Part shown: positions 9,040 through 61,327 of the stretch, piece after piece | Layout: every line of letters begins with the position of its first letter | Numbering within the stretch: the stretch's first letter is position 1 | DNA from: a virus | IMG/VR virus record: IMGVR_UViG_3300049846_001393 | Span: 15,163 to 79,162 of that record | Strand: one strand, 5' to 3' | DNA length: 64,000 bases | Program-made: the position numbers and the translations under genes | Notes under the pieces: model-generated | The model's database searches: none | Told to the model about the DNA's origin: nothing | What the model saw: only the letters and a program-made list of their open reading frames with translations

Positions 9040-12000
9040 CTAGTACCTTCTAGATTCCAAACCTGATGTGCCAACATTCATGGCCTTAGCAAGAGAATCA
9101 ACAACCTGACCCTCACTCATACCATTGTTAACGACAACCTGAACTTGGATATTACGATTATCCTGATAGCCAACAGATGGACCATTTGCACCACCGCTGA
9201 CATTACCAAACTGGCCGGACTGATTTAACCTACGAACCTCATAGAGAGTAGGAAGCATAAGGCTTGTTGGAAGATTAGCCTGAAGATTGCCACTAATGTC
9301 GTCTTTAAGATTCTTGATAGTAACCTCAAGATCTCTGAACTGCTTAGTGCCAGGGATAAGAGTAGACTTCAAACCCTCAAGATAATTAGCATACTCAGTC
9401 TTAGTGATCTGGTCAGTATCCAATAGATACTTGTATTCATCAAGCTTACCCTGGAAGATAGCGTCACGAGCAGCCTTCTCAGCAGAAATAACACCAGCCC
9501 TTAGATTATTAATTTCTGCAGCACCCTTACCGGCATTAATTGCCTGAGCCAACTGCTCTCTAGCAGCAGCCGCGGCAACCTGAGCAGCACCAATATCATC
9601 ACCAATAGCAGCCAACTCTGCCTGACGAAGGCTGAACTGCGAATTACGAACGTCATTCATTGCGTTCGTCATTGCTCTCTGAGCATCAATTAACTGTCTT
9701 TGTGCAGCAATTCTTTCATCGTTAGTCTTTGCTTCAGCCAGCAACTGCTGTGCAAGGGTAAGGTCATACTGAGCGTCCTGAACAGGATCTTCTGTCTGAG
9801 CCTTAGCAAGATCAAACATCGCCTCCCTTCTTCTCTTAAACGCTTCACGCTGAGCACGCTCTGCTGCAATAAGTTCCATCCAAGCCTGCATACGCTCTTC
9901 TGGGCCAACAGCATTTGCCATATTCATTCTGGCAATATTTACATCATACTGAGCCTGATCAAGACTGTCCTGTGATCCAAGAGCCTTTAGAAGCTGAGCA
10001 AACGTTTTAGCTCTGTTATTTATATTATCCCTAAGAGCAGCGCGTGCTGCAATCTGTGCAGCAACAGCATTAGCAGCGCCCTCCTTGTCGTTTGCAGCAA
10101 CAGCAGCAGCATAATCCTTATTAGCTTGATCAAGATCAAGAACAGCCTGAGCGACAGAATCCTTGTTTGCAGCAGCCTGAGCCTTAGCAATACCACGAAC
10201 AGCATCAGCAACAGCCTTAGCAGCATCAATCACAGCCTGCTTAGCTTCACGACGTTTAGCATCTAACTCATCAAGAGTCTGGGCATCCAAACCATCAGCA
10301 ACAGCTTTTTGGTAATCTTTTTCTGCCTGCTGAGCATCCATCATCGCTTTAGCTACAGAATCTTTGTTTGCTTTGGCTTTGTTTAGATTTGTTGCAGCTT
10401 GAGCTCTTTGCTGGTATGCGGAGAACTGTGCTTTCTTATCATTAACCTCATTGCCAGTATCGCCAGGAAGCTTTCCAGTAGTATTAATACTATTAATAAT
10501 GGCATTTGCGCCAGAAATAGCCTGATCATATGCCTGAACTGTTGGATCATTAGCTTTAGCTCCAGTCATCTCCATGAATAGAGCGCGTTGAGTTTCGAGA
10601 TCCTTCTTTCGCTTCTCCATCATTGCTTTAACTTGATCAATTGATAGTGATCCATTACTTAAAGCAGTTGTTATAAATGTTATAAAGTCATCAGCAGTTT
10701 CACCAAAAGCAGTTTCCCAACCCTTAGTAAATGTAGACCAGTTACCAACCAAAGTTCCAAGCTGACCCTTAATAGCAGCAACTCTAGTTTCAATAGGAAT
10801 TTTTATTGGCCTACCAGCAATCTCTGCAGCCTCCTCGGCAGTGGCTGCATTCTGAATCATGGCAATGGCCATCTCTTTTTGAGTCTGAACAAGCTCAAGT
10901 GCAGCTTTGCGAAGATCTTCTCCAGTTAAACCAGAATTAATTGCAGTTTGAATAGCTGCAGCCTTCTGCATAATACCAGCTATTGTTGTTGGATCGCTAG
11001 TAAGATTGATAATATCAAGAGTTGCAGTTAAAGCCTTCTGAGCTTGCTCATTAACAAAACCGTTTATAGTTTTATCAATATTGAATAGCTGTTCATATAA
11101 AAGTTTTTTATTACCAGTAACTTTAGGATCATTAATCTTAGCAAGAATAGATGCTCTTAACTCATTCAAACCAGCAAGATATGATTCTGGAGAAATTCTA
11201 CCAAGATCAAGATCTTTTTGTAGCTGTTCAAGAGACTTCAGAGAAGCAGCGGCAGCGTCATCAAGAAGACCATTAGCCTCAAGTAATGCCTTTACCCTAG
11301 GATCATTCTCCCCAAGTTCAATAATTTTATCAAGAACCTCTTTAGCCTGTTTCTGTTCTGCATCTGTATATTTTCTATCCTTATCCTGTACTATTTCTTC
11401 CAATGCTTTAGTTGGATTAGCTGAACCAAGAGCAGAAGCAATATCTCCATCAAGATTATTTAGATTAAAACCTAGAGCTTCAGAAATTTTTGTGAGTCTC
11501 TCTAAGGCGGCTGCTCTAAGCGCATCACCAGCATCAGCCAAATCTTGGTCAAACTGGAAAGCCCTAGAATCACCAAGTCTACCCTCACCAGCATAAGCAT
11601 TTCTAATATATGCCTCTACGTTAAATTTACCCTTATTAGTGCCAGTTTTAATTCTGGCTTTATCTGCTGCTTGCTTTGATTTTTCTTCAGCCTTCTGCTG
11701 AGCTGGGCCTACTCCGACATTGCCAGCTGGATTGATATCAATTCCCCCAGCAGTAATTCCTTCATCAGCAATTACATTTGGAAGAGCATTAGCACCACTA
11801 AGTCCAGAAATTCTTTCCAAGAAGAAGTTTACAGCAGACTGCTGATTAGCTAAAATATCTAATATTCTCTGCTCATTTTCATCAAATGCAGACTTAGCAA
11901 AAGCAAGAGCCTGAGCATACTCTGCCTCACTTTCATATCTTGCACCAGTAAAGAATCCAGATAAACGTGCACCAATACTTATACCAGCATTAACCTCTCT

Positions 12001-15000
12001 AAGATCTCGAGCCTTAGCTTCAAGATCTGCAATAGAAGTATTCGCATCCTCAGCAAATGCCTTAATCTTATCAAGGTTAGCATTCTGCTTATCAACACCA
12101 GACTGGATAAGAGAATAAGCGACCATAACACCAGTTAAAGCTAGTGTTGTAAAACCGCCAACAGCAGCAGAAGCTTTCTGTGCAGGAGTCTTCAATCCAG
12201 CCTTATTAAGCTTTTCAACATTTTGACTACGCTGATTAAATCCAGCACCTAAAGCAGATAGCCTCCCCTGACCAGCAGCACGGGCATCAATATATGCCTG
12301 TCTTCCTGTTCTACCAAAATTACCACCAAGCATACCTGGTGCTGTCATAGTGCCAGTTCTAGGGTTAATGCCATACTGTCCAGCACCAGAAGTTCCACTC
12401 ATAAAATTGAATAAAGCAGCCATTTGGGCACGCTGGCTAGCATTAACTGTGCCCATAACAGCTTGACGCTGCAAAGCATTTGCTCGCATATTTGCAAACA
12501 AACCATTATTGCCTCTTAACCCACCAAGAGCGCCAGCAATACCACCACCAGGACCAAATCTAGTTGCTGCCTTAAGAAGTTTGAATGCTGCAACTGCAGC
12601 AAGAATCTTTACAGGTAAACCATCAAAAGCACCAAGAACTGGCGAGACAGCCTTAAAAATTAATCCAAATCCCTTAGCTATAATACCAAGAAGACCAGCA
12701 ACTTCCTTAAGAAGATCTTCCAAGCCAGACTCAAGAAGTGTCAAGAACAGTTTTCTTACCTGCTCTCTCAAACGCTGGAAGGTATTGGTAAGAGTAGCCT
12801 GAACTTTCTTAAATCGCTCTTCAAGTTTACCAGCACCATTTTCGGCAGCATCAGTAAGACCCTTCAAAGCCTGAGGGTTGGAAAGGGCAGGAAGAATTGC
12901 AGCAGCCTCACGACGACCACCAAGAAGATTAACAATGAAATCTTTAGATTCCTTGTTTAGACTATTAAACGCCTCTCCAATTCCAAAAAGAATTCCTCTA
13001 GTATCAGATTTATTAATAGCGGTAATAAATTCTGGAGTTCCAAGTTTATCATTAGTTATCGCAATATCCAAAAGAGCTTGACGACTCTGATAAATAGCAG
13101 GAATAATACGACCAAACTGCTCAGCAAGAGCAGCGCCACCACGACCAGAACGCTGCTGAGCAAGAGCGGCAAGGGCTGCGAACTCTTCAAGAGAGAAACC
13201 TGCTTCTGTAGCAACAGGAGCAATATCGCCAATGAAAGAAATTGTCTCCTTAGCAAGTACACCAGACTTTTGCTCAAGAGCAATAGCAACGTCACCAATT
13301 TTTTTGAACGAAGCTTCGAAAGCAATAGATGCAGCAGTAAGACCATCGGTAATTTCTGCAAGAGGAAGACCTGTAGACTGAGCAATCTTTGCAGCAGATT
13401 CAATCTGGGCATTTACCAGATCAGTACCACCCATACCCTCAATAGGTCCAACGGTACTAAATGCTCCAATCAACTGAACTGTAAGAAGAGCAAGTTCATC
13501 TGCAGCAAGACCAGTCTCAAGCGAGATATCCATAATCTGCTTCTTGAACTGCTGGGTAACTACTGCGGCATCCTCACCAAAGGTTGCTTGGATCTGGCTT
13601 TCAATTTTTGCCAAGTTGAACTGAAGCTGCTCAGCTTCTTTGATTGAATCTTTGATTCCACCAAGAGCACCGTAAAGAAGCATTGAAGGAACGGCATAAC
13701 GAACAGTTGAAAGCAAACCAGAGCCAAAGAAGCCGGCAGCGCCACCAAGACCACGAACCCTAGAAACAACATCTCCACGCTGACCGCCGCCGCGGCGACC
13801 CATTCCACCTGGGACTACCCCACCGCCACCGCCACCGCCACCAGTACCGCCAGTGCCACCAGTGCCGCCAGAAAGAAGAGTAAGCTTTCTACTCTCAAGA
13901 ACCTGCAATTCAGTCTGCAAACGGCTAAGCTCTACCTGTGCCTGTGGATCAACAGAAGTATCAATCTTAATAACTTCTGCATTAATAGCCTTAACACGCG
14001 ATTCAAGATCGGCAATTTGCTTAGCTCTAAGTGCAGGATCTTTTTCCTTACCAATCTTACCAAGAAGAGTCTGCTCAGCAACAATCTGAGATCTATAATT
14101 CTTTAGCTTTGAAGAAGCTTTAACAGCATTTGGATTACTAAGTTCAAAGTTTAACTGCTTTTGAGCTCTAGTAACTTTTTGTATAGCAAGATTGAGGGCA
14201 TCATATTCAACTTTTTGCTGCTTGGTTAAATTATTGTAACCACCAGCACCCTTAATAAGATTGTCTCTCTCTTTCTTAAGAGATCTCAGACTTTTTTCTG
14301 ACTGACCCAGCGCCTGCCCACTTATAGTTGGATCGCTAATAGAAAGAGAAGCAGCATCTTTAACATTAGAACCAATAAGTTTAGCTCTCTTAGTCAAATC
14401 TTTAATATCTTTAGAAGTATTATCTTTTGGAGTATCTAAAGCAGTAGAAAGATTCTGTGGAGCATTTTTACCAATCTTTTGTAGATCAGCAATCTTCTTT
14501 TCAAGAACAGCAGCTTCTTTACTAAGATTCTGAAGGACGGCAGTAGCAGAAGCATCATTAATCGTAATGGTTACATCATCTTTAATATCAGTTTGTAACT
14601 CATCAAGCTGCTTTTTAATATTCTTAAGAGCATTTAAAGCATCCTTAGGATCAAGCTTTACAGCAGCCTGAACACCCTTCTGAACCTGAGCCAACTGTCG
14701 CTTACGTTCGGCAGCAATAGCAGCCTCATCACCTGGAACCAAAACACCAGCAACAGCACCCCTAGCGGCAGTAAGACGTTCTTTCCTAGTAGAAACACGC
14801 GAAGGGTCAACGCCCTTTAATGCTGCCGCCTCAAGAGCAGCACGCCTTCTAGCAGCACGAGTCTGAGCAGCAACAACATCTGCCTCAGCAAGACGAGGGC
14901 CATAAAGAGCCTGAGCAGCAGCACCGGTAGCAGCCTGTCCTTCTGTCTTAAGAACTTGGCCCTCTGCGGCGCCAGCGACAAATGAAGGATTAGCATTCTG

Positions 15001-17529
15001 CAGCGCAGCAACCTGATTAGCAAGTCTCTGATTATATAAAGCAGCCTGAGCTCTTGCTTCAGCAATCTCTTGAACTAGTCCAAGATTTTCTCTTTCAAAA
15101 CCAGCAGCAGCTTGAATAAGAGCATCAACATACTGTCTATATGCCTCTGCAATACCAGAACTTTCAACAAGATCACTGGGATCTCCAGACTGAACGTTCC
15201 CTCCAATATCTTGCATATCAGCAGCTCTTTGAGCAGCAGCTTGAGCTGCAGCCTCATATGCGCTTACATTTTCTTCATCACCAAATGGATCATTGCCAGC
15301 AGCACCGCCACGGCCACCGCCACCGCCCCCGCCAGTACCACCAATTCCGCCAGAAAGTTTTTTGGCTGTACTACCCTTGCTAGTTAATGAAGAAACAAGT
15401 CCACGTTCTGCTTTAGCAAACTCTGCATAAATACCTTTAAGTAGCTGAGTCTGCCTATCAAGAGCCTTAGACTTATCATTTAAAGCTTTAACAAGATTTT
15501 TTTCTGCACTAGAAATATTTGTTGCAGTAGAACCAGTGGCTTTAGCACCAGTAGCTTTAGCGCCGGTAGTTTTAGCTCCGGTAGGGCCAGTAGTTTTTGG
15601 ACCAGTAGCGGCAGGACCAGTAGCTTTAGGTCCAGTAGCAGCAGCACCAGTAGTTTTAGCTCCGGTAGCAGCAGGACCAGTGGGACCAGTAGCTTTAGGT
15701 CCAGTAGCAGCAGGTGTCTGACCTTCAGCACCAGTAATTTGTGCAACAGTTTCACGAAGAGCAGCCGCAAGGCTATCAAGCTCTTCGTTTAACTCATCAA
15801 CACTTAAACCGCTTAACTCTTTTAATATTTCAGAAGTTACATCGCCAGCCATAGTAGCTGGAGATCCCTTGCCAAGCGGTATACCTGTTCTTAGCGCTAC
15901 TGATTCAGCAATTGTCTCATAAAGATCTTTAGTACCATACTGACTAGTTCCAGCAGCTAACTTTGATCTTTGTTTTGCAGCATCTTTATAAATAGGATTA
16001 TCTCTTCCAAGATATTCCTGCAAAGTTTGAGCCTTAAGTCTACCCTTAGGTGTTAAACTGAACGGTCCTGTCTTTAAACCAGTAACCTTCATTGCTTCTG
16101 CATTTTGTCTCTGAATAAATTCTTTCAGAGACTTCATATCACTAAGACCTGGATTTAGTTTCTTTACATCAGCAAGAGAAAGTGTTCCAGATTTTGTTCC
16201 GCTAGCAGCAACTCTTAAAGCTTCAGCATTTCTTGAAAGACCAATTACAGACTTAGCCTCTCTCCCACCAGTAATCCCATCTCCAAATATACCTGCACCA
16301 CGCTCTACAAGCTTTCCTCTAACACGCGATCCAATACTTGGATCAACAGATCCCGCCCTAAAATCACCGATATGACCAAGCTCATGGAGCATTACCTGCA
16401 TAGCGTCAGTTGGATTAAGGTCTTTTCTTAGGGCAACACCCATATTTTTTGGACCAGCATAACCCGAAGCCTTACCAGGCTGGACATTATAGTCCAAAAC
16501 TTTTCTTGAAGTCTTAGAAAATGTTTGGAGTTGTTCAGGCGCCAACGTTGGGAACTGCATCAAGGTCTTTTTCAAACCTCTATTAACTACTTTTGCAGTT
16601 CTAGGATCTTCAAATTCAGAAAGGAATTTAGGAGTTAAAAGCTTTTGAAACGTAGGCTCTAACTTTCTTCTAACCTTGCCTCTTTCAATTTGAGCCTGAA
16701 GTCGCTCATCTAAAGAAAGACCCTTAGCACGGGCAGTAGATCTAGTAACAGGTCTACCATATCTATCAAGTCTAGCGTTTTGCTTAGTTACACCACGATA
16801 TGGCTCGGTATACTGTTTACCACCACCAATTTCAGCCTCTGCACTAACTAAATCTTCTGGGACAAAATCTTCAGTAGATCTCTTTGCCCTTGTTTTTCTT
16901 CTTGTAGTAGAAGGTGCAATATCTCTTGCAGCAGAAGCTCTACGCTCAGCAGCAGAAGGGGCGCGTGGAGTAGGTGCAGCCGTAGCCTCAGCCTGACGAA
17001 CAAGAGTCTTGGCTGGAACAGTTTTAGCCTGCGCGGCCTTAGAACCAACTACAGCCTGAACTTCGCGATTATAAAGATCGCGAACAGCAGTACCAATTCT
17101 AGTCGGTTTAATCTTGCTTAACTGCCTATCAAAGTCAGCAAAAAAAGTATCAAAAGATTTAGTAAATTTTCTAACTACAGCAGTCTGCTGAGACTTAGGA
17201 AGAAGCTCAAATCCCTTAAAAGAAGACTTGAAAGAATCAACAGAAGCAGCTCTAATCTTGCTCAAAGAGGGAGTGTCAAGACCAAGTGCTTTAGCCTGCT
17301 GCATCTGCACCTGAGCATTAGCGGCAGCGATCCTGGCAGAACCAGTAGCAGCAGCGCTACGGTCAGCAGTATTAACTCTACTTAAATTTTGCTGAACAGG
17401 TGGAGCAGAGGCAACCTGCTTAGAAGAACCAGAGGCGACACGCTTTGACTCAGCATCAAGCCTTCTGATGCTTTTCATAACCTCGCTATCATCCACACCA
17501 AGCTTGATATTAAAGTTAAAATCAGCCAT
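9040..17529 (-). CDS. tape measure protein with N-terminal HExxH metallopeptidase-like domain
   Basis: 2829 aa, Ala/Gly/Lys-rich helical; follows the frameshifting chaperone; HELGH motif at 16372-16386. Confidence 0.9.
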   Translation of the reverse strand: MADFNFNIKLGVDDSEVMKSIRRLDAESKRVASGSSKQVASAPPVQQNLSRVNTADRSAAATGSARIAAANAQVQMQQAKALGLDTPSLSKIRAASVDSFKSSFKGFELLPKSQQTAVVRKFTKSFDTFFADFDRQLSKIKPTRIGTAVRDLYNREVQAVVGSKAAQAKTVPAKTLVRQAEATAAPTPRAPSAAERRASAARDIAPSTTRRKTRAKRSTEDFVPEDLVSAEAEIGGGKQYTEPYRGVTKQNARLDRYGRPVTRSTARAKGLSLDERLQAQIERGKVRRKLEPTFQKLLTPKFLSEFEDPRTAKVVNRGLKKTLMQFPTLAPEQLQTFSKTSRKVLDYNVQPGKASGYAGPKNMGVALRKDLNPTDAMQVMLHELGHIGDFRAGSVDPSIGSRVRGKLVERGAGIFGDGITGGREAKSVIGLSRNAEALRVAASGTKSGTLSLADVKKLNPGLSDMKSLKEFIQRQNAEAMKVTGLKTGPFSLTPKGRLKAQTLQEYLGRDNPIYKDAAKQRSKLAAGTSQYGTKDLYETIAESVALRTGIPLGKGSPATMAGDVTSEILKELSGLSVDELNEELDSLAAALRETVAQITGAEGQTPAATGPKATGPTGPAATGAKTTGAAATGPKATGPAATGPKTTGPTGAKTTGAKATGAKATGSTATNISSAEKNLVKALNDKSKALDRQTQLLKGIYAEFAKAERGLVSSLTSKGSTAKKLSGGIGGTGGGGGGGRGGAAGNDPFGDEENVSAYEAAAQAAAQRAADMQDIGGNVQSGDPSDLVESSGIAEAYRQYVDALIQAAAGFERENLGLVQEIAEARAQAALYNQRLANQVAALQNANPSFVAGAAEGQVLKTEGQAATGAAAQALYGPRLAEADVVAAQTRAARRRAALEAAALKGVDPSRVSTRKERLTAARGAVAGVLVPGDEAAIAAERKRQLAQVQKGVQAAVKLDPKDALNALKNIKKQLDELQTDIKDDVTITINDASATAVLQNLSKEAAVLEKKIADLQKIGKNAPQNLSTALDTPKDNTSKDIKDLTKRAKLIGSNVKDAASLSISDPTISGQALGQSEKSLRSLKKERDNLIKGAGGYNNLTKQQKVEYDALNLAIQKVTRAQKQLNFELSNPNAVKASSKLKNYRSQIVAEQTLLGKIGKEKDPALRAKQIADLESRVKAINAEVIKIDTSVDPQAQVELSRLQTELQVLESRKLTLLSGGTGGTGGTGGGGGGGGVVPGGMGRRGGGQRGDVVSRVRGLGGAAGFFGSGLLSTVRYAVPSMLLYGALGGIKDSIKEAEQLQFNLAKIESQIQATFGEDAAVVTQQFKKQIMDISLETGLAADELALLTVQLIGAFSTVGPIEGMGGTDLVNAQIESAAKIAQSTGLPLAEITDGLTAASIAFEASFKKIGDVAIALEQKSGVLAKETISFIGDIAPVATEAGFSLEEFAALAALAQQRSGRGGAALAEQFGRIIPAIYQSRQALLDIAITNDKLGTPEFITAINKSDTRGILFGIGEAFNSLNKESKDFIVNLLGGRREAAAILPALSNPQALKGLTDAAENGAGKLEERFKKVQATLTNTFQRLREQVRKLFLTLLESGLEDLLKEVAGLLGIIAKGFGLIFKAVSPVLGAFDGLPVKILAAVAAFKLLKAATRFGPGGGIAGALGGLRGNNGLFANMRANALQRQAVMGTVNASQRAQMAALFNFMSGTSGAGQYGINPRTGTMTAPGMLGGNFGRTGRQAYIDARAAGQGRLSALGAGFNQRSQNVEKLNKAGLKTPAQKASAAVGGFTTLALTGVMVAYSLIQSGVDKQNANLDKIKAFAEDANTSIADLEAKARDLREVNAGISIGARLSGFFTGARYESEAEYAQALAFAKSAFDENEQRILDILANQQSAVNFFLERISGLSGANALPNVIADEGITAGGIDINPAGNVGVGPAQQKAEEKSKQAADKARIKTGTNKGKFNVEAYIRNAYAGEGRLGDSRAFQFDQDLADAGDALRAAALERLTKISEALGFNLNNLDGDIASALGSANPTKALEEIVQDKDRKYTDAEQKQAKEVLDKIIELGENDPRVKALLEANGLLDDAAAASLKSLEQLQKDLDLGRISPESYLAGLNELRASILAKINDPKVTGNKKLLYEQLFNIDKTINGFVNEQAQKALTATLDIINLTSDPTTIAGIMQKAAAIQTAINSGLTGEDLRKAALELVQTQKEMAIAMIQNAATAEEAAEIAGRPIKIPIETRVAAIKGQLGTLVGNWSTFTKGWETAFGETADDFITFITTALSNGSLSIDQVKAMMEKRKKDLETQRALFMEMTGAKANDPTVQAYDQAISGANAIINSINTTGKLPGDTGNEVNDKKAQFSAYQQRAQAATNLNKAKANKDSVAKAMMDAQQAEKDYQKAVADGLDAQTLDELDAKRREAKQAVIDAAKAVADAVRGIAKAQAAANKDSVAQAVLDLDQANKDYAAAVAANDKEGAANAVAAQIAARAALRDNINNRAKTFAQLLKALGSQDSLDQAQYDVNIARMNMANAVGPEERMQAWMELIAAERAQREAFKRRREAMFDLAKAQTEDPVQDAQYDLTLAQQLLAEAKTNDERIAAQRQLIDAQRAMTNAMNDVRNSQFSLRQAELAAIGDDIGAAQVAAAAAREQLAQAINAGKGAAEINNLRAGVISAEKAARDAIFQGKLDEYKYLLDTDQITKTEYANYLEGLKSTLIPGTKQFRDLEVTIKNLKDDISGNLQANLPTSLMLPTLYEVRRLNQSGQFGNVSGGANGPSVGYQDNRNIQVQVVVNNGMSEGQVVDSLAKAMNVGTSGLESRRY
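15530..15720 (-). repeat. imperfect 15-bp tandem repeat encoding (A/T)TG(P/A)(K/A) units inside the tape measure
   Basis: repeated ACCAGTAGC/CCGGTAG units; peptide ATGPKATGPTGPAATGAKTTG... Confidence 0.85.
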
Positions 17530-50774: not shown

Positions 50775-51084
50775 AACCTAGCTGAATAGATATATCAGTG
50801 ATTGGATCTGTAACTGTTTTGTTTTCAAAATCAAAAGAAAGAGTTGGAACTATAGCATAGTTTTTTCTTAGACTATAAATATATGTAGCATTACCTACAA
50901 ACTCTGTCCAAACAAGGTTTTCATCAAGCAAAGCAACAAATCCTATTTGATGAACATCATCAATAGATGCTTCATATATATCTTGAATTTTTATAGATAG
51001 TTTTGTTGAACCACAATCTGGACATATACTCATAAAGCTATGGCTAGAGAAATGCTGTCCGCATGTGTGACAAAAAGTAAACAT
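50761..51084 (-). CDS. zinc-ribbon protein
   Basis: CHTC...CPDCGS. Confidence 0.6.
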   Translation of the reverse strand: MFTFCHTCGQHFSSHSFMSICPDCGSTKLSIKIQDIYEASIDDVHQIGFVALLDENLVWTEFVGNATYIYSLRKNYAIVPTLSFDFENKTVTDPITDISIQLGFDDV

Positions 51085-51124
51085 TGTGTGCTAAATTTAT
51101 CTCAAGCACAACAATTTTTATCTT

Positions 51125-51526
51125 ATGAAGAATCAAGATTTCTGGGGATCAGAATTTATAGATGATGGAAACTTCGGGGCAATCAAAGAAGTATTTTCAT
51201 CACTGAAGTATTTGCCATTGGATTTAGTTCTTTATGTTGCTGACCAATCATATCTTGGCCAAATTTGGCTTAGAGATAAAGAGCATATAGAAAATCTTAT
51301 TTTATCTATACAAGCAAATGGGTTTGAAAACCCTGGGCTCATTGACTTCGACAACACTTCTGTAAGGCTCACAGACGGAAACCACAGATTAGTTGCGGCG
51401 CAACACTTGGGTCTGCAATACTTCCCCATCGAACTTCGACAAGTCGATGAAATTAAAGTAAGATCAGTAAGACTATATAACTTCTTCCAAAAAATATTGG
51501 AGTCACAATGGCAGGACCAAAACTAA
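51125..51526 (+). CDS. ParB/Srx-like domain protein
   Basis: SIQANGFENP, DGNHRLVAA. Confidence 0.75.
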   Translation: MKNQDFWGSEFIDDGNFGAIKEVFSSLKYLPLDLVLYVADQSYLGQIWLRDKEHIENLILSIQANGFENPGLIDFDNTSVRLTDGNHRLVAAQHLGLQYFPIELRQVDEIKVRSVRLYNFFQKILESQWQDQN

Positions 51527-51798
51527 AAAAGAATGTTCCATTCCAGCCTTCAGGGGATACCACAAGAATAATTTCTCTTGGTGGTGGAACTTGGGCCTAC
51601 CTATTTGATCATCTTGGTAAGACTCAGCATCTTCCACGCAACTCAGAAGAGTTTGCTGCAAAGTGCAAAGAGACTGATGATATTATGAATGGTAAAATTA
51701 CAGCAGAGCTTGAGGCTCTTGGCTGGACTGATGTTATTGAGAGGATGAACGCAGATGTTGAATCACCTGAAGAGTCTGTGGCAGAAGACGCAAACTGA
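51508..51798 (+). CDS. hypothetical protein
   Basis: GGAG RBS, 96 aa. Confidence 0.6.
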   Translation: MAGPKLKKNVPFQPSGDTTRIISLGGGTWAYLFDHLGKTQHLPRNSEEFAAKCKETDDIMNGKITAELEALGWTDVIERMNADVESPEESVAEDAN

Positions 51799-52054
51799 AT
51801 CAGAGCGAATCGCCAATGCGGAACTCCGTCAACGTCGTCGTGAAATCGTTGAGGTAATGCAGGAAAACGCCAAACTGCGTAAACGTATTGACGAACTTGA
51901 GTCTGCAATTCGTGAGCATCGCGACTTTGACCCGATTGAGTCTGCTAAGGTTCAACCTGACCTAGACCGTAAACTTTGGTCTGTGCTAGATTCAGGTCAT
52001 AAGTCTTGGGAAGAATATAAAGCTGAACATAATAATTTTAGAGTAGATCTTTAA
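51755..52054 (+). CDS. coiled-coil hypothetical protein
   Basis: 99 aa. Confidence 0.5.
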   Translation: MLNHLKSLWQKTQTESERIANAELRQRRREIVEVMQENAKLRKRIDELESAIREHRDFDPIESAKVQPDLDRKLWSVLDSGHKSWEEYKAEHNNFRVDL

Positions 52055-52063
52055 GGGGAATCA

Positions 52064-52171
52064 GTGAATACAACACTTCTATTTTTTATTATTGGTTTCA
52101 CATCATCTTTGGTAGGTTTTGCAGCGGGATACTTTGCTGGTGATAAGGCTGCTGAGATAAATGAGCGATGA
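52064..52171 (+). CDS. small membrane protein (35 aa)
   Basis: GTG start after AAGGGG; single hydrophobic helix. Confidence 0.45.
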   Translation: MNTTLLFFIIGFTSSLVGFAAGYFAGDKAAEINER

Positions 52172-52472
52172 TAATATGTATCCCATGTATCCAGTTAGCG
52201 ATAATGAGCGTGGGCAATTAGCTAATATGCTTCGTAGTTATGGTGAGGCATCACGGAATATCAGTCCGTTAGTTGGCTTAAAGTTACCACCTTATGTAGC
52301 AGAAAAATTTTTTCGTGCTGCTGACCTATTAGATATTGATAATGGTGTGGATATAGTTTCCGATGCTCTACGCCACTTTGCAGAACGTGCACTTTCCTGC
52401 TGGGAAGGTTCCGATGCTGATGAAGCAATCGAAGTAATGAATCAGGCTGCTAGCATACTTGATAAAAATTAG
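52161..52472 (+). CDS. hypothetical protein
   Basis: 103 aa. Confidence 0.55.
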   Translation: MSDDNMYPMYPVSDNERGQLANMLRSYGEASRNISPLVGLKLPPYVAEKFFRAADLLDIDNGVDIVSDALRHFAERALSCWEGSDADEAIEVMNQAASILDKN

Positions 52473-52477
52473 ATCGT

Positions 52478-52553
52478 GTGATGGTGGTGTAAGGAAAACA
52501 CAGTCTATTTCCGATAGAAAACTGCTGGGATCGGCACTCAGCCCATCACTCCA
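52478..52553 (+). tRNA. non-canonical tRNA-Gly(UCC) with encoded CCA
   Basis: Acceptor GTGATGG/CCATCAC, U73, CCA; D-stem GTGT/ACAC; anticodon loop TT-TCC-GA; T-arm GCTGGG-ATCGGCA-CTCAGC lacking TTC. Confidence 0.8.
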
Positions 52554-52561
52554 AGGTTGAT

Positions 52562-53188
52562 ATGAGAAAAGTAAGATTAGGTTTAGAAAAAGATATTGAT
52601 GAAATCCAAAATATCTATAATCATAAAGATAATAGAGAATTTTTGGGTGGATTTACAATGAGAGATCCGATCTCAGCAAAAGTTGCTCTTGGCTCTGAAA
52701 TCGTTGTCGAAGAAGACGGCAAAATAGTTGGCGCCGATCAGTGCGGGTTTGACCATAGCCATAGATGGAGACACCAGTTAGTTGGGGTATATCCAGAATT
52801 TAAGCGCCAAAGAATTGCAACATCTATGTATGTCTTCTCTATGCTTAAAGCAATGCTTAGTGGAAGATTTATAATGCACGATTATATTGTTTCAGACAAT
52901 TGCATAATGCCAATACTTCTTCCAACAATTGGATACAAATTAGAAGCAACGCAAAGATCTAAAGTCAGAAGACATAAAGATATTAGTCACTGGGTTAAAG
53001 AAATGACTGAAGAATCTTTTTTAGAATCTTTGCAAAGAGTTCCATCTAATTATGAATTTATTTTATCTGATAATGATAAATATCTTGCAAATTTTAAAAA
53101 ACTAATTAATGAACTTGAAAATCAAGATTTGATAAATCAGGTTACTGAAAATCGAAAATTTGCTTTAAAGTTTTTGGATATAAAATGA
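52562..53188 (+). CDS. GNAT-fold acyltransferase
   Basis: VRLGLEKDIDEIQNIY, VVEEDGKIVG, VGVYPEFKRQRIA, DN...IGY. Confidence 0.75.
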   Translation: MRKVRLGLEKDIDEIQNIYNHKDNREFLGGFTMRDPISAKVALGSEIVVEEDGKIVGADQCGFDHSHRWRHQLVGVYPEFKRQRIATSMYVFSMLKAMLSGRFIMHDYIVSDNCIMPILLPTIGYKLEATQRSKVRRHKDISHWVKEMTEESFLESLQRVPSNYEFILSDNDKYLANFKKLINELENQDLINQVTENRKFALKFLDIK

Positions 53189-53871
53189 TTGCTATATTTC
53201 CATTGCAAACAAATTATTTTTCTGATTTTGTGGATACTTCTTTCATTAAAAGCGCTAGATCGCTTATAAAAAAGAATCTACCGAGCATCCTGACTGCAGT
53301 TGATACTGAAACAAAAGAATATGCAACTATGGGTTGGAGAAGTAGAAGAACTAGCCATGCTTGCGAAATTACATACTTCGGCCATCAAAGAGATGATCTA
53401 CTAATAGAAGTATCTAAAAGTCTAATTCTATGCTCTATTCTTGAGGGAAGAAAAAGAATAGAAATATATAATGAGTTTGAAGATATAAATGAAATATTTG
53501 AAAAAGCTGGATTTGTAAATGAGGGATTTCATCCAAAGTTTACAAAAGATTTTTTAGATGTTACTGTCTTTGGATTCGTTCCATCTATAGATGGGCTACC
53601 TTCTTTGGGCTCTGAAACTTTTGCAAATTTTGTAATATCTAATGATGTTCTTATTTATAGAAATAAAAATTTTGATCTTTATAAAAAAGATAAAGATTGG
53701 GATAGATTATCTAACTCTAAATTAACTTTTGGAGAAGAGTTAAGTAGAGAAATTTCTGAAATTGAATCAACTGCAAATATTAATATACTTAATATTCCAA
53801 AATGGTCTGGTGATTCTAATAAATCTGATATAGCTTACAAACCAGAAGATTTTTATGTCAATAACAAGTAA
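53185..53871 (+). CDS. divergent GNAT-like protein
   Basis: IFEKAGFVNEG RimJ/RimL-like motif; ATGA-coupled to the first GNAT. Confidence 0.5.
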   Translation: MIAIFPLQTNYFSDFVDTSFIKSARSLIKKNLPSILTAVDTETKEYATMGWRSRRTSHACEITYFGHQRDDLLIEVSKSLILCSILEGRKRIEIYNEFEDINEIFEKAGFVNEGFHPKFTKDFLDVTVFGFVPSIDGLPSLGSETFANFVISNDVLIYRNKNFDLYKKDKDWDRLSNSKLTFGEELSREISEIESTANINILNIPKWSGDSNKSDIAYKPEDFYVNNK

Positions 53872-54334
53872 AGATATTAAATGGCTTAAAGCTTGTATAT
53901 CCTGTGCTGAAATCTTTGCTACTTGTGCTAAGGCCCAATTCTGGTGCTTCATCGTAGAAGAGAATGGTTATGGCCGCATAATCGGTCAAGGCTACAATGG
54001 TGTCCCAGCAGGAATGAAGCACTGCGTAGATGGTGGCTGTCCACGCTGGATCAACAAAGTCCCACATGGAACACCATACGATTATGGCGATGGTCTTTGC
54101 TACAGTTCACACGCTGAAGTTTCAGCCCTTGCCCACGGTGATGGCTCTCGCTACAAAGGTTCTACGCTTTATGTCAACGGGCCACCCTGCCTAACTTGCG
54201 CCAAGTCTGTGGCTGCTGCAGGAATCCGTAGGATTGTATGCCTATCCGAATCAGATAGATTGCATACCGATGTGACCGAGGCGTTTCTAGCCGCTGCTGG
54301 CGTAGAACTGGAGTATGTAAGTGATCTCAGCTAA
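53855..54334 (+). CDS. dCMP deaminase
   Basis: GYNG, HAE, PCLTC. Confidence 0.9.
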   Translation: MSITSKDIKWLKACISCAEIFATCAKAQFWCFIVEENGYGRIIGQGYNGVPAGMKHCVDGGCPRWINKVPHGTPYDYGDGLCYSSHAEVSALAHGDGSRYKGSTLYVNGPPCLTCAKSVAAAGIRRIVCLSESDRLHTDVTEAFLAAAGVELEYVSDLS

Positions 54335-55121
54335 AGTAATTGCTGACTCAATCTCTCCGCAAGGAAATAGATTGACAACTATGGAATGTACCTTTCATAG
54401 GTTCATTCTTCCAGAAGTAAACACATATCGAATGTGGTCACGCAATGCTGCTAGCAGTCGTGCAATTCCACTAAAGCGTCGTATTGAAGAAGTTCGATCA
54501 AATCCCGCTATACCCGTCCATTGGGGCAAGAATCAGCGTGGTATGGTTGCAGAGACTACTCTAGATCCAGATAGTGAAACAATGGCACACTATCAATGGA
54601 TTAAGGCTGCAAATAATGCAGCAGATGTTGCTGAAGAACTTGATAATCTCAATCTTCATAAGCAGGTGGCTGCAAGAATTCTTGAGCCATTCCTTTGGCA
54701 TACATCTGTTATAGCATCAACAGATTTCGAGAACTGCTTCTCTCAGCGAATCCATCCTGATGCACAGCCAGAGTTTCAACTTCTAGCAATTGAAATGAAA
54801 AAAGCGTTAGACTCTTCTAAGCCCGAACAACTTGGTTACAACGAATGGCATCTACCGTATGTCAGTCGTGCAGAGCAGATCTTGACACTTGAAACCAAAA
54901 AGAAAATCTCTGTTGCCCGTGTCGCCAGATCATCTTATTTAAATCAAAATAAGTCTGATATTGATGCAGATATTTCGCTTTACGAAAGACTCATTAGCGC
55001 AGAGCCGCCACACCTTTCACCTTTTGAAATGGTTGCAACTCCAGCAATTGGTAGTGCGCCAATTCCAGGAAATTATAATGGCTGGCATCAGCTTCGTCAT
55101 TCAATATCAATAAATCGATAA
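54321..55121 (+). CDS. thyX: flavin-dependent thymidylate synthase
   Basis: SRNAASSRAIP, HKQVAARILEPF, AQPE, HLSPFE. Confidence 0.85.
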   Translation: MISAKVIADSISPQGNRLTTMECTFHRFILPEVNTYRMWSRNAASSRAIPLKRRIEEVRSNPAIPVHWGKNQRGMVAETTLDPDSETMAHYQWIKAANNAADVAEELDNLNLHKQVAARILEPFLWHTSVIASTDFENCFSQRIHPDAQPEFQLLAIEMKKALDSSKPEQLGYNEWHLPYVSRAEQILTLETKKKISVARVARSSYLNQNKSDIDADISLYERLISAEPPHLSPFEMVATPAIGSAPIPGNYNGWHQLRHSISINR

Positions 55122-55148
55122 CGTTATTCTCCTAACAAGGAGACTACA

Positions 55149-55559
55149 ATGGCCGTAACTGGTATTTCTTATGATTTAATTATTTCTACAGATCTTAGAG
55201 ATTCTGCTGGACATAAAACAAAAATAGTTAAGTTAAATTCTTTTGATGGAACATACAATACTGGTGGTATTGTTTTAGACCCATCTTGGTTTGATTTTAC
55301 TGAAATAATAGCCATAGTTACGCAGCCAACAAGTGCATACCCTCTTTCTGGAGCTGGTGAGCCTTGGACATTAATTGGCTTTAATCATATAATTAAAGTT
55401 GATCAAGGTATAGCTAATGGTGGTTCTGCAAATGGTGTATCAGAGTGGAGAATTCTTCCATTCATTACCGATGGTACAACATTTAACGAACTTGCAGACG
55501 GACAATCCCTTTCATTCCCTGCTGGTATTGAGCCTGTGGTAATAATTATAGGTTCTTAA
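55149..55559 (+). CDS. hypothetical protein, possibly virion-associated
   Basis: AAGGAG RBS, 136 aa beta-rich. Confidence 0.55.
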   Translation: MAVTGISYDLIISTDLRDSAGHKTKIVKLNSFDGTYNTGGIVLDPSWFDFTEIIAIVTQPTSAYPLSGAGEPWTLIGFNHIIKVDQGIANGGSANGVSEWRILPFITDGTTFNELADGQSLSFPAGIEPVVIIIGS

Positions 55560-59981: not shown

Positions 59982-60064
59982 GGGAGTGCTGCAGAGATGG
60001 CGATCTGCACCAGACTGTAAATCTGGCGTCGTTGACTTAGGGGGTTCGAATCCCTCCACTCCCA
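59982..60064 (+). tRNA. tRNA-Tyr(GUA)
   Basis: GGGAGTG/CACTCCC acceptor, CCAGA-CTGTAAA-TCTGG, long variable arm, GGTTCGAATCC. Confidence 0.92.
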
Positions 60065-60066
60065 CT

Positions 60067-60675: not shown

Positions 60676-60748
60676 TCCCAGATAGCTCAATTGGCAGAGC
60701 AGTTGACTGTTAATCAGCGGGTTGTAGGTTCGAGTCCTACTCTGGGAG
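60676..60748 (+). tRNA. tRNA-Asn(GUU)
   Basis: TCCCAGA/TCTGGGA acceptor, CTGTTAA anticodon loop, GGTTCGAGTCC. Confidence 0.95.
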
Positions 60749-61327
60749 CTATTGGTTGGCTTCAAAAAAATCTTTGGCAAAGCCGGCAGGCGTCATGGAT
60801 CTAAACTCTTTGGTCTGCTCAGATGCGCCACCAACCTTCCAAATAACACGACCTTGAGTGTTTTCTACTTCGTGGCGTTCTGGGGTATTGAAGTCTCCCC
60901 ATAGCCAAGTCATCTTTTGCCATGGATCGCCATGATGATACGGATGAAACTTGTATTGCACTGGTCCAAGTTCGGGGATAAGTTTATGAATCCTGCTCAT
61001 AGGATTTTCTACTACCCAAAATTTTAGTGTATCTACAGATTTGTAGAAATTTACTATTTCCATAACTTTCAATACCAAATCAACTGCCTCTGCAGTCCTA
61101 CCGTCAGCGTCTTTCTCCTTAAAGAAACGTGAACCTGAAAGAGAGAAGTGGGTGCATGGTGGTGCGGCAAGAATGCCGTAGACTTCTGGAAACTCTTGAT
61201 AGTCAAAATCAAAAATATCAGAACCAAGTTTGATATCGATTTGATGAACTTCATAGCCTGAATCTTTATATGGTTTACTCCAATTTCCAGAGTAATCAAA
61301 TAAAGATAATATAACTTTATTAGACAT
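60749..61327 (-). CDS. short C5 DNA cytosine methyltransferase
   Basis: LSLFDYSG, PPCTHFS, VENP; start at MSNKV. Confidence 0.8.
   Translation of the reverse strand: MSNKVILSLFDYSGNWSKPYKDSGYEVHQIDIKLGSDIFDFDYQEFPEVYGILAAPPCTHFSLSGSRFFKEKDADGRTAEAVDLVLKVMEIVNFYKSVDTLKFWVVENPMSRIHKLIPELGPVQYKFHPYHHGDPWQKMTWLWGDFNTPERHEVENTQGRVIWKVGGASEQTKEFRSMTPAGFAKDFFEANQ

Follow-up and report, generated by a model that had tools for sequence, protein, structure and literature searches.

Does a phage enzyme pair that is encoded directly behind an aberrant transfer RNA (tRNA) use this RNA as a private source of an activated amino acid? The question is raised by positions 52478–53871 of a 64,000-nucleotide (nt) stretch of virus DNA (hereafter the window), part of the 79-kb IMG/VR record IMGVR_UViG_3300049846_001393 of a freshwater phage (estimated completeness 63%), where a tRNA-Gly-like RNA is followed by two overlapping open reading frames (ORFs), ORF A and ORF B, both predicted to encode proteins of the GNAT fold. 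A tRNA-Gly likewise precedes homologs of the two genes in a second, unrelated phage lineage, and we consider a functional coupling of the GNAT pair with the tRNA-Gly highly probable. The locus had been singled out in an earlier note, made from the letters of the window, which proposed a non-ribosomal glycyl donor serving a split tandem-GNAT transferase; this interpretation was partly supported by the analysis described below.

A tRNA-Gly-like RNA directly upstream of ORF A

The RNA (52478–52553, plus strand) comprises 76 nt and fills the 89 nt between the neighbouring genes, on their coding strand; 8 nt separate its 3' end from the start codon of ORF A. It has a perfect acceptor stem of 7 bp (G1-C72, U2-A71, G3-C70 and so on) followed by U8, a D arm with a 4-bp stem and the loop AAGGAAA, an anticodon arm with the loop UUUCCGA (anticodon UCC) and a 5-bp stem including a G27/A43 mismatch, a variable region of 4 nt, a T stem of 6 bp with the loop AUCGGCA, and finally U73 and an encoded CCA. 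The anticodon, G1-C72, U2-A71, the G27/A43 mismatch, the aberrant T arm, U73 and the CCA end had been pointed out in the earlier note, and all can be read in the sequence. The cloverleaf is the minimum free energy fold of the RNA (−21.8 kcal/mol), with a modest advantage over shuffled sequences (z only −1.7). Intact positions include U8, A14, G18G19, U33, C35C36, U55, U73 and the CCA end, and of the identity set of glycyl-tRNA synthetase (GlyRS), consisting of G1-C72, C2-G71, U73, C35 and C36 (PMC7826273), the RNA has 4/5, with U2-A71 replacing C2-G71.

When run with default settings on the window, ARAGORN called only tRNA-Tyr (59982–60065) and tRNA-Asn (60676–60749), the two that had been recognized in the earlier note as canonical, and the Rfam tRNA model (RF00005) gave no match to the Gly-like RNA at E ≤ 10 with either a 1-kb or a 101-nt query. 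Once the threshold was lowered to 92%, ARAGORN, a check suggested beforehand, called the RNA as tRNA-Gly(tcc), placing it just under the default threshold. As a control for chance, 300 dinucleotide shuffles of the window were scanned at the same setting and gave 0.29 calls per window, with calls of 70–78 nt in 16/300 and calls with a CCA end in 2/300. A covariance model built from seven distinct GNAT-linked phage tRNA-Gly sequences (model R1; see below) scored the RNA over its full length at 35.1 bits with filters off, compared to 23.6 bits for the real tRNA-Tyr and at most 9.6 bits for noise; a scan of the entire 79-kb record with R1 and default filters gave the tRNA-Asn only. Given the rarity of such calls in the shuffles and the placement in a coding-strand intergenic gap, the RNA is not a chance match, and it is thus far beyond chance, yet no canonical tRNA. 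Its exact T-arm pattern found no match in viral contigs. Codon supply is an unlikely reason for carrying it, since GGA and GGG together account for only 25% of the Gly codons of the phage.

The gene pair follows a tRNA-Gly in an unrelated phage lineage

Linkage of the tRNA to the GNAT pair in homologous loci had been set as a test in advance. A metagenome scan with the ORF B family yielded 13 loci, nine of them with upstream sequence (L036, L037/38, L039, L040, L041, L042, L043, L044 and L045), and in 9/9 a bona fide tRNA-Gly was found 13–101 nt 5' of the B homolog, with the A homolog directly after it. These tRNA genes were all found by ARAGORN at default, and the six tested against Rfam (L036, L037, L039, L040, L041 and L045) scored 48–58 bits, where the gathering score is 29. 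The layout is the same as in the window, with a Shine-Dalgarno motif between the tRNA and the start codon (tRNA, AAAGG, ATG); the gap is 13–22 nt in 7/8 loci measured and 101 nt in L036. The A and B homologs are adjacent and overlapping at every locus, in the order tRNA-B-A in the related loci versus RNA-A-B in the window. The window phage and the phages with linked tRNAs have only A and B in common, and their backbones are unrelated. The linkage of tRNA-Gly and GNAT pair is therefore seen twice, in phage backbones that have no relation to one another and with A and B in opposite order, and since nothing but A and B is common to the window genome and those phages, the tRNA-Gly, A and B appear to have moved as a unit. 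A search of viral contigs with the pattern of the relatives' tRNA-Gly gave no match.

In L041 (1587–10439), the trio stands in a larger module encoding an HslV-like peptidase, an AAA_28 ATPase, a 257-aa protein, the tRNA-Gly, B, A1, a second A paralog (A2), two Amidoligase_2 proteins, a SAM methyltransferase and a 298-aa protein. The same layout was seen in L036, L038, L042, L043 and L047, and the module could be a pathway for peptide, protein or base modification.

The linked tRNA-Gly genes resemble non-proteogenic tRNA-Gly

The seven distinct linked tRNA-Gly sequences were compared with one another, and covariation was read from these relatives. The acceptor stem (GCGGCCG) and U73 are invariant and the T stem nearly so. 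All anticodon-stem pairs covary (5/5), and the wobble base is C, G or U (CCC, GCC, UCC), with glycine read throughout. The GlyRS identity set is complete in these relatives (5/5). Other elements are lost or altered: G18G19 of the D loop are absent in 6/7 (the exception being L045), the T loop has TGC instead of TTC in L036, L037 and L040, position 37 is a pyrimidine in 5/7, a C32-G38 pair is able to reduce the anticodon loop to 5 nt, and the T stem carries U50-A64 and A51-U63. The other tRNAs of these phages (Leu, Arg, Val, Tyr and Asn) are canonical.

The non-proteogenic (NP) tRNA-Gly of staphylococci are similarly devoid of G18-G19 and U55, with a TGC or TGT T-loop and five-base anticodon loops, and carry the weak EF-Tu pairs A49-U65, U50-A64 and A51-U63 (PMC13443448; PMC7826273). 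They comprise NP1-3, keep GlyRS identity and are dedicated to FmhB, FemA and FemB, proteins of two GNAT units each (PMC7826273, PMC13443448). Judged by their sequences, the linked phage tRNAs bear the hallmarks of this class, sharing U50-A64, A51-U63 and an anticodon loop that can be shortened, in most copies the lack of G18G19, and in some the lack of U55 (TGC). The systems differ in that the tRNA gene here is found in a phage and adjoins the enzyme genes, and in that the two GNAT units are separate proteins. The window RNA differs further, as it keeps G18G19 and U55 and is instead aberrant at positions 54/58 and in T-stem length.

The feature losses and the drifting wobble base make the linked tRNAs poorly suited to decoding and to standing in for a tRNA of the host. 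An alternative offered in the earlier note, in which a GNAT disables the host tRNA-Gly and the phage supplies a resistant replacement, consequently fits poorly, because the linked tRNAs lack features needed for decoding. They would probably remain good substrates of GlyRS, and the pairs U50-A64 and A51-U63, the pyrimidine at position 37 and the variable wobble base hint at an escape from EF-Tu and the ribosome.

ORF A and ORF B are predicted to form a GNAT heterodimer

ORF A and ORF B overlap in the tetranucleotide ATGA and are AT-rich (GC 0.25–0.33 versus 0.39–0.53 in the flanks), in line with the coupled, AT-rich pair described in the earlier note. ORF A alone gave only sub-threshold matches to Pfam GNAT models. 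An exhaustive HMMER search gathered homologs in 86 clusters, among them P0002 with 78% to ORF A, and 45/54 aligned family members matched Pfam GNAT models. The family profile matched YpeA, EctA and other acetyltransferases in the PDB, with none of the 56 matches named as a GNAT toxin. The AlphaFold2 (AF2) model of ORF A has a predicted local distance difference test (pLDDT) score of 97 and gave fold matches with a Foldseek E of 1e-9. Among the best 50 matches listed by VIA and Foldseek, the best folds were N-alpha-acetyltransferases (Ard1/Naa10, RimI, Naa50 and NatC; VIA Z 18–21); Ard1/Naa10, RimI and Naa50 matched with a root-mean-square deviation of ~1.7–2.2 Å over ~145 residues and an identity of 10–17%. 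Unlike these three, ORF A is extended at the C-terminus by a strand and two helices, its cofactor loop is a variant one, the motif-B Tyr is missing, and its genomic partners are a tRNA and a pseudo-GNAT.

The cofactor loop that follows β4 in GNAT proteins (standard Q/R-x-x-G-x-G/A) reads KRQRIA in ORF A, as had been noticed before, and the family consensus is R-R-x-R-I-x-T; the Gly at the fourth position is mostly Arg, and a minority of members have a canonical loop (e.g. R-R-Q-G-I-G). In a profile alignment, the motif-B Tyr of YpeA (within the stretch N-x(6)-Y-x(3)-G-Y) aligns with Leu120, which is invariant in the ORF A family. In many acetyltransferases this Tyr is the general acid that protonates coenzyme A (CoA; cf. 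Y140 of TacT). The change of Gly to Arg and the missing Tyr are as expected if acetyl-CoA were no longer the donor.

In contrast to the large ORF A family, homologs of ORF B form 11 clusters only, and the ORF B family had no match in a set of one genome per prokaryotic species. ORF B matched no model in Pfam, PHROG, NCBIfam or PADLOC. Compared to the A family by hhalign, it aligned with a probability of 95% (E 2e-8) over 171 columns that include the C-terminal extension. Its AF2 model (pLDDT 85) gave GNAT fold matches (Foldseek E 5e-6), the cofactor loop is absent, and ORF B has invariant residues of its own (RSRRTSH and LEGRKRxE). Basic stretches lie at residues 132–139 of A (RSKVRRHK) and 52–58 of B (RSRRTSH). 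Both proteins are thus assigned to the GNAT superfamily (Pfam clan CL0257) by predicted fold, as the earlier note had proposed, and profile comparison places ORF B as a distant paralog of ORF A.

Complex prediction placed B on A via the β-strand edge typical of GNAT dimers, with an ipSAE of 0.73 against 0.00 for the best control, a contact agreement of at least 93% across three runs and a partner pLDDT of at least 86; the score mark used is attained by 58/80 solved complexes and 2/110 mismatched pairs. A and B are therefore predicted to form a heterodimer, a pseudo-tandem GNAT, in support of the proposed split tandem arrangement. ORF A peptides found no match in viral contigs or metagenome contigs, no NCBIfam model provided a name for the cassette proteins, and assignment to a defence-system family was dropped as PADLOC gave no match.

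Other family members also follow unusual tRNAs

A third clade of the ORF A family (alignment A7; loci L049–L061) has no ORF B partner. A tRNA-Met(CAU) lies directly upstream in three of its lineages, a tRNA-like RNA in a fourth, and no tRNA in another three. The tRNA-Met genes (L050:3745–3818, L052:3717–3790 and L053:2137–2210) are located 45–210 nt 5' of the family GNAT (e.g. L050:3866–4645), score 60–63 bits with Rfam, and have the initiator-like marks A11:U24, A73, U1-A72 and G30G31:C39C40. The tRNA-like RNA (76 nt; L057:3882–3957, also in L058, L059 and L061) lies 23 nt 5' of its GNAT (L057:3980–4717). It has a z of −4.5, no Rfam tRNA match and 35.5 bits to R1, and with a closed hairpin (7 bp, 4-nt loop) as its anticodon arm it should be unable to decode. 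The acceptor end has G3.U70 and A73, which are identity marks of alanine. A further tRNA, with an 8-nt anticodon loop (ARAGORN 'ctcc') and G3.U70/A73, lies 1.2 kb 3' of the GNAT (L053:4190–4263, and in L054).

Across the three clades, a same-strand tRNA is found within ~210 nt upstream in roughly 6/10 lineages, far above the tRNA density of phages by a rough estimate. That the family stands repeatedly behind tRNAs unfit for elongation suggests that these enzymes act on aminoacyl-tRNA itself.

Comparison with known GNAT enzymes that act on aminoacyl-tRNA

Kinship to Fem transferases, Mom or the GNAT toxins, which the earlier note had considered, was borne out in none of the three cases. The FemAB model (PF02388) did not match A or B at E ≤ 1, nor any of 54 family members at E ≤ 0.01. 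Fem proteins combine two GNAT-like domains in one polypeptide; here two overlapping genes encode two polypeptides, the predicted heterodimer is analogous only, and membership of the Fem family was rejected on both counts.

Mom of phage Mu modifies adenine in DNA with glycine taken from Gly-tRNA-Gly (PMC13219725), in agreement with the earlier note on its use of Gly-tRNA. The cassette resembles Mom (PDB 8BV8; PMC13219725), a dimer using Gly-tRNA-Gly, in being an accessory GNAT-fold system of a phage. Mom, however, is a homodimer with a helix-turn-helix-like insertion that takes host tRNA of any isoacceptor, whereas the cassette encodes a predicted heterodimer of paralogs and a private tRNA. Alignment of Mu Mom (L063:1378–2103) by hhalign gave probabilities of 1.2% with the A family (A3) and 0.3% with the B family (A6), and Mom-family Pfam models matched neither A, B nor the 54 family members; Mom family membership was therefore ruled out.

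The toxins TacT and AtaT2 N-acetylate the glycine on Gly-tRNA (PMC9177977). They and AtaT are small GNATs that form dimers, as is predicted for the cassette proteins, and their specificities (Gly-tRNA-Gly; Met-tRNAfMet in vitro for AtaT) parallel the tRNAs found beside the ORF A family (PMC9177977, PMC7470980). The cassette differs from them in the lack of a DUF1778 partner and of the motif-B Tyr, the Arg at the fourth loop position, the phage location and the adjacent tRNA gene. No DUF1778/RHH antitoxin gene was found beside ORF A, its neighbours being the GNAT paralog and an acidic 103-aa ORF. Membership among the TacT/AtaT toxins was rejected for want of the DUF1778 partner and the motif-B Tyr.

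A possible private glycyl donor and its rivals

A mechanism that would connect the tRNA with the enzymes, and for which we see the case as nearly balanced with a slight tilt towards doubt, is that a private non-decoding Gly-tRNA serves a split GNAT that transfers its glycyl moiety. Host GlyRS would charge the RNA, which has tRNA-Gly identity (C35, C36, U73, G1-C72 and CCA) and would be poor at decoding. ORF A would be the catalytic GNAT subunit, and ORF B, the paralog without a cofactor loop, would join it at the usual GNAT β-strand interface to give a pseudo-tandem GNAT. The pair would move the glycyl group from the private Gly-tRNA to an acceptor such as a DNA base, a protein N-terminus, a cell-envelope precursor or a small molecule, in analogy to Mom of phage Mu and to Fem transferases, which are served by non-proteogenic tRNA-Gly. 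We infer that the RNA is charged and evades EF-Tu, and likewise its role as donor rather than substrate and the target of the cassette.

Donor chemistry is favoured because the linked tRNAs appear adapted like the only well-studied dedicated donors, because A and B as a predicted heterodimer would imitate the paired GNAT units of tRNA-dependent transferases, because Arg in place of the loop Gly and the lack of the Tyr resemble a loss of acetyl-CoA chemistry, and because phages usually carry anti-restriction or surface-modification functions in strain-variable cassettes like this one (see below).

Several observations weigh against this explanation. In L034 the B-A pair is present without a tRNA-Gly within 90.9 kb of sequence, which would make the private tRNA dispensable. 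The loci L036–L047 belong to one syntenic phage lineage, so that the independent Gly linkages are few (that lineage and the window), a number to be read as a lower bound. Some members of the ORF A family retain the RxxGxG loop together with the motif-B Asn, on account of which the family may still use acetyl-CoA, and the closest folds of ORF A are acetyl-CoA-dependent N-alpha-acetyltransferases (Z ~20). The window RNA, finally, is the odd one among the copies, with G18G19 and U55 kept, U2-A71, the T-loop A54/G58 and an extra T-stem pair, and as the most degenerate of them (U2-A71; T-loop A54/G58) it may not be chargeable.

The same traits, along with the G27/A43 mismatch, the 6-bp T stem, the missing Rfam match and the score below the ARAGORN default, could mean that the window RNA is a decaying remnant and that A and B draw on host Gly-tRNA as Mom does, a situation for which L034, with the pair and no private tRNA, would provide a precedent. 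This explanation concerns the window only and is compatible with any other reading of the family; we think it a real but somewhat unlikely one, also in view of an acceptor stem that is perfect over 7 bp, the intact U8, A14, G18G19, U33, C35C36, U73 and CCA, and the 35 bits to R1. Furthermore, contigs spanning the RNA in three other samples (runs X5, X6 and X11) show 0–1 differences over 151–428 nt, and a 5.6-kb contig from run X7, which covers the entire cassette, differs from the window by ~4% over the 2.3 kb compared.

Alternatively, ORF A could acetylate the glycine on Gly-tRNA with acetyl-CoA in the manner of TacT and AtaT2. The linked tRNA would then be what the enzyme acetylates by preference, a decoy or sponge that tempers its activity, or bait directed at a toxin of the host, and B would regulate A like an antitoxin. 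The fold of ORF A is indeed nearest to enzymes that acetylate alpha-amino groups, and canonical loops occur in some family members. The main target of GNAT toxins is Gly-tRNA-Gly, recognized by its small side chain and its acceptor stem (PMC9177977), and this stem is exactly the part that is invariant in the linked tRNAs. A related clade follows an initiator-like tRNA-Met, the reported in vitro target of AtaT, and the cassette is strain-variable, as genes for toxins, defence and anti-defence often are. We nevertheless judge this alternative unlikely: B is a GNAT paralog and no DUF1778/RHH antitoxin accompanies the pair, the motif-B Tyr is Leu across the family, PADLOC gave no match, none of the 56 PDB profile matches is a chain named as a GNAT toxin, there is no evident reason for a lytic phage to block Gly-tRNA, and the non-decoding RNA with Ala identity beside a family member has no parallel among known toxin targets.

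That A and B make up an ordinary acetyltransferase whose target has nothing to do with tRNA, and that the tRNA is a hitch-hiker or a site for RNase P/Z processing that defines the 5' end of the mRNA, would agree with the tRNA 3' end abutting the Shine-Dalgarno motif in most loci (which implies co-transcription and processing), with the GNATs lacking any tRNA in L034 and three third-clade lineages, and with a degenerate window RNA, tolerable in a mere processing signal, but is improbable given that Gly identity persists through changes of the wobble base and anticodon stem, that specifically G18G19 and U55 are lost while these phages keep their other tRNAs canonical, and that an upstream tRNA occurs in roughly 6/10 lineages of three clades, well above the expected tRNA density (rough estimate).

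Returning to the private glycyl donor, we suggest, tentatively and with rather more doubt than for the donor mechanism at this locus, that the GNAT family with its private non-decoding upstream aminoacyl-tRNAs (elbow-less tRNA-Gly, Ala-identity RNA and initiator-like tRNA-Met) might constitute a new class of aminoacyl transferases, encoded by viruses and dependent on tRNA, some of them heterodimers of an active and a pseudo-GNAT. Such enzymes would attach amino acids to DNA, proteins or envelope precursors and leave the tRNAs of translation untouched. No published description of a phage-encoded dedicated tRNA with a GNAT partner was found in the literature. To our knowledge, dedicated non-ribosomal tRNAs are essentially known from staphylococcal cell-wall synthesis, and we know of no phage GNAT using charged tRNA other than Mom, which takes host tRNA. 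If the suggestion is true, a new GNAT family of ~90 clusters, without annotation in Pfam family models, PHROGs, NCBIfam and PADLOC, would be defined, and a phage-borne glycine carrier with the G18G19 and U55 losses would represent convergent evolution of private aminoacyl-tRNAs in viruses. Glycyl transfer would lead to new DNA, protein or envelope modifications, possibly for anti-restriction, and acetylation of Gly-tRNA would instead imply translation control; sub-threshold 'pseudo-tRNAs' in phage genomes could then be working partners of adjacent enzymes.

The RNA and the gene pair lie in a strain-variable cassette

The RNA, ORF A and ORF B form, together with a preceding small ORF, a 1.7-kb accessory cassette that is strain-variable (Table 1). 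The nearest relative, L002 (ThyX 87% and dCMP deaminase 95% identical), is collinear with the window through a common 33-aa membrane ORF (52064–52164) and resumes at 53861, holding one further small membrane ORF in place of the cassette; L003 and L004 are likewise without it. Freshwater public assemblies carry both cassette-plus and cassette-minus forms: the run X7 contig mentioned above includes the cassette, and in a run X5 contig L002-like sequence is joined straight to 53861. No flanking repeats were found at the cassette ends, and in a search of the phage collection for near or distant DNA matches of the region none was obtained except for the thyX stretch. A promoter and terminator scan of 51000–55300 gave fewer promoter-like sites than in shuffles and no terminator on the plus strand. 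The first cassette ORF had a sub-threshold DUF7523 match only, and no PHROG, PADLOC or NCBIfam match.

Table 1 Features of the accessory cassette in the window.
Feature	Position	Strand	Basis
Accessory cassette: 103-aa ORF, tRNA-Gly-like RNA, ORF A, ORF B	52161–53860	+	Presence/absence among close relatives
First cassette ORF, 103 aa, acidic, pI 4.3	52161–52472	+	ORF list; absent from L002–L004
tRNA-Gly(UCC)-like cloverleaf, encoded CCA, aberrant T arm	52478–52553	+	Sequence; ARAGORN at 92%; model R1
AAGG Shine-Dalgarno-like motif of ORF A	52553–52556	+	From sequence; overlaps A76 of the RNA
ORF A, 208 aa: predicted GNAT domain (residues 1–150) with strand/helical extension; loop KRQRIA	52562–53188	+	Profile, AF2, fold matches
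ORF B, 228 aa: predicted divergent GNAT-fold paralog of A, no cofactor loop	53185–53871	+	hhalign, AF2, complex prediction

The genes for dCMP deaminase and ThyX, which the earlier note had placed in the same unit as the GNAT genes, do follow downstream. They are also present in the relatives that lack the cassette and are for that reason backbone genes, which are uninformative on the target of the cassette; linkage of the cassette to them was thus ruled out.

Minor observations on the neighbourhood

The slot between a 99-aa ORF and the dCMP deaminase gene is hypervariable, containing small membrane ORFs in L002 (L002:7303–7530) and the cassette in the window, and being almost empty in L003 and L004. 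About 0.6 kb 5' of the cassette, an ORF with a ParB-like nuclease domain (51125–51526; PHROG ParB-like, E 5e-7) is kept in L002–L005. Elsewhere in the window, a minus-strand ORF of 2830 aa extends over 9040–17529. The pair of tRNA-Tyr and tRNA-Asn is kept in the relatives L002–L004, and since both tRNA species are known targets of anticodon nucleases, the pair may serve as counter-defence tRNAs.

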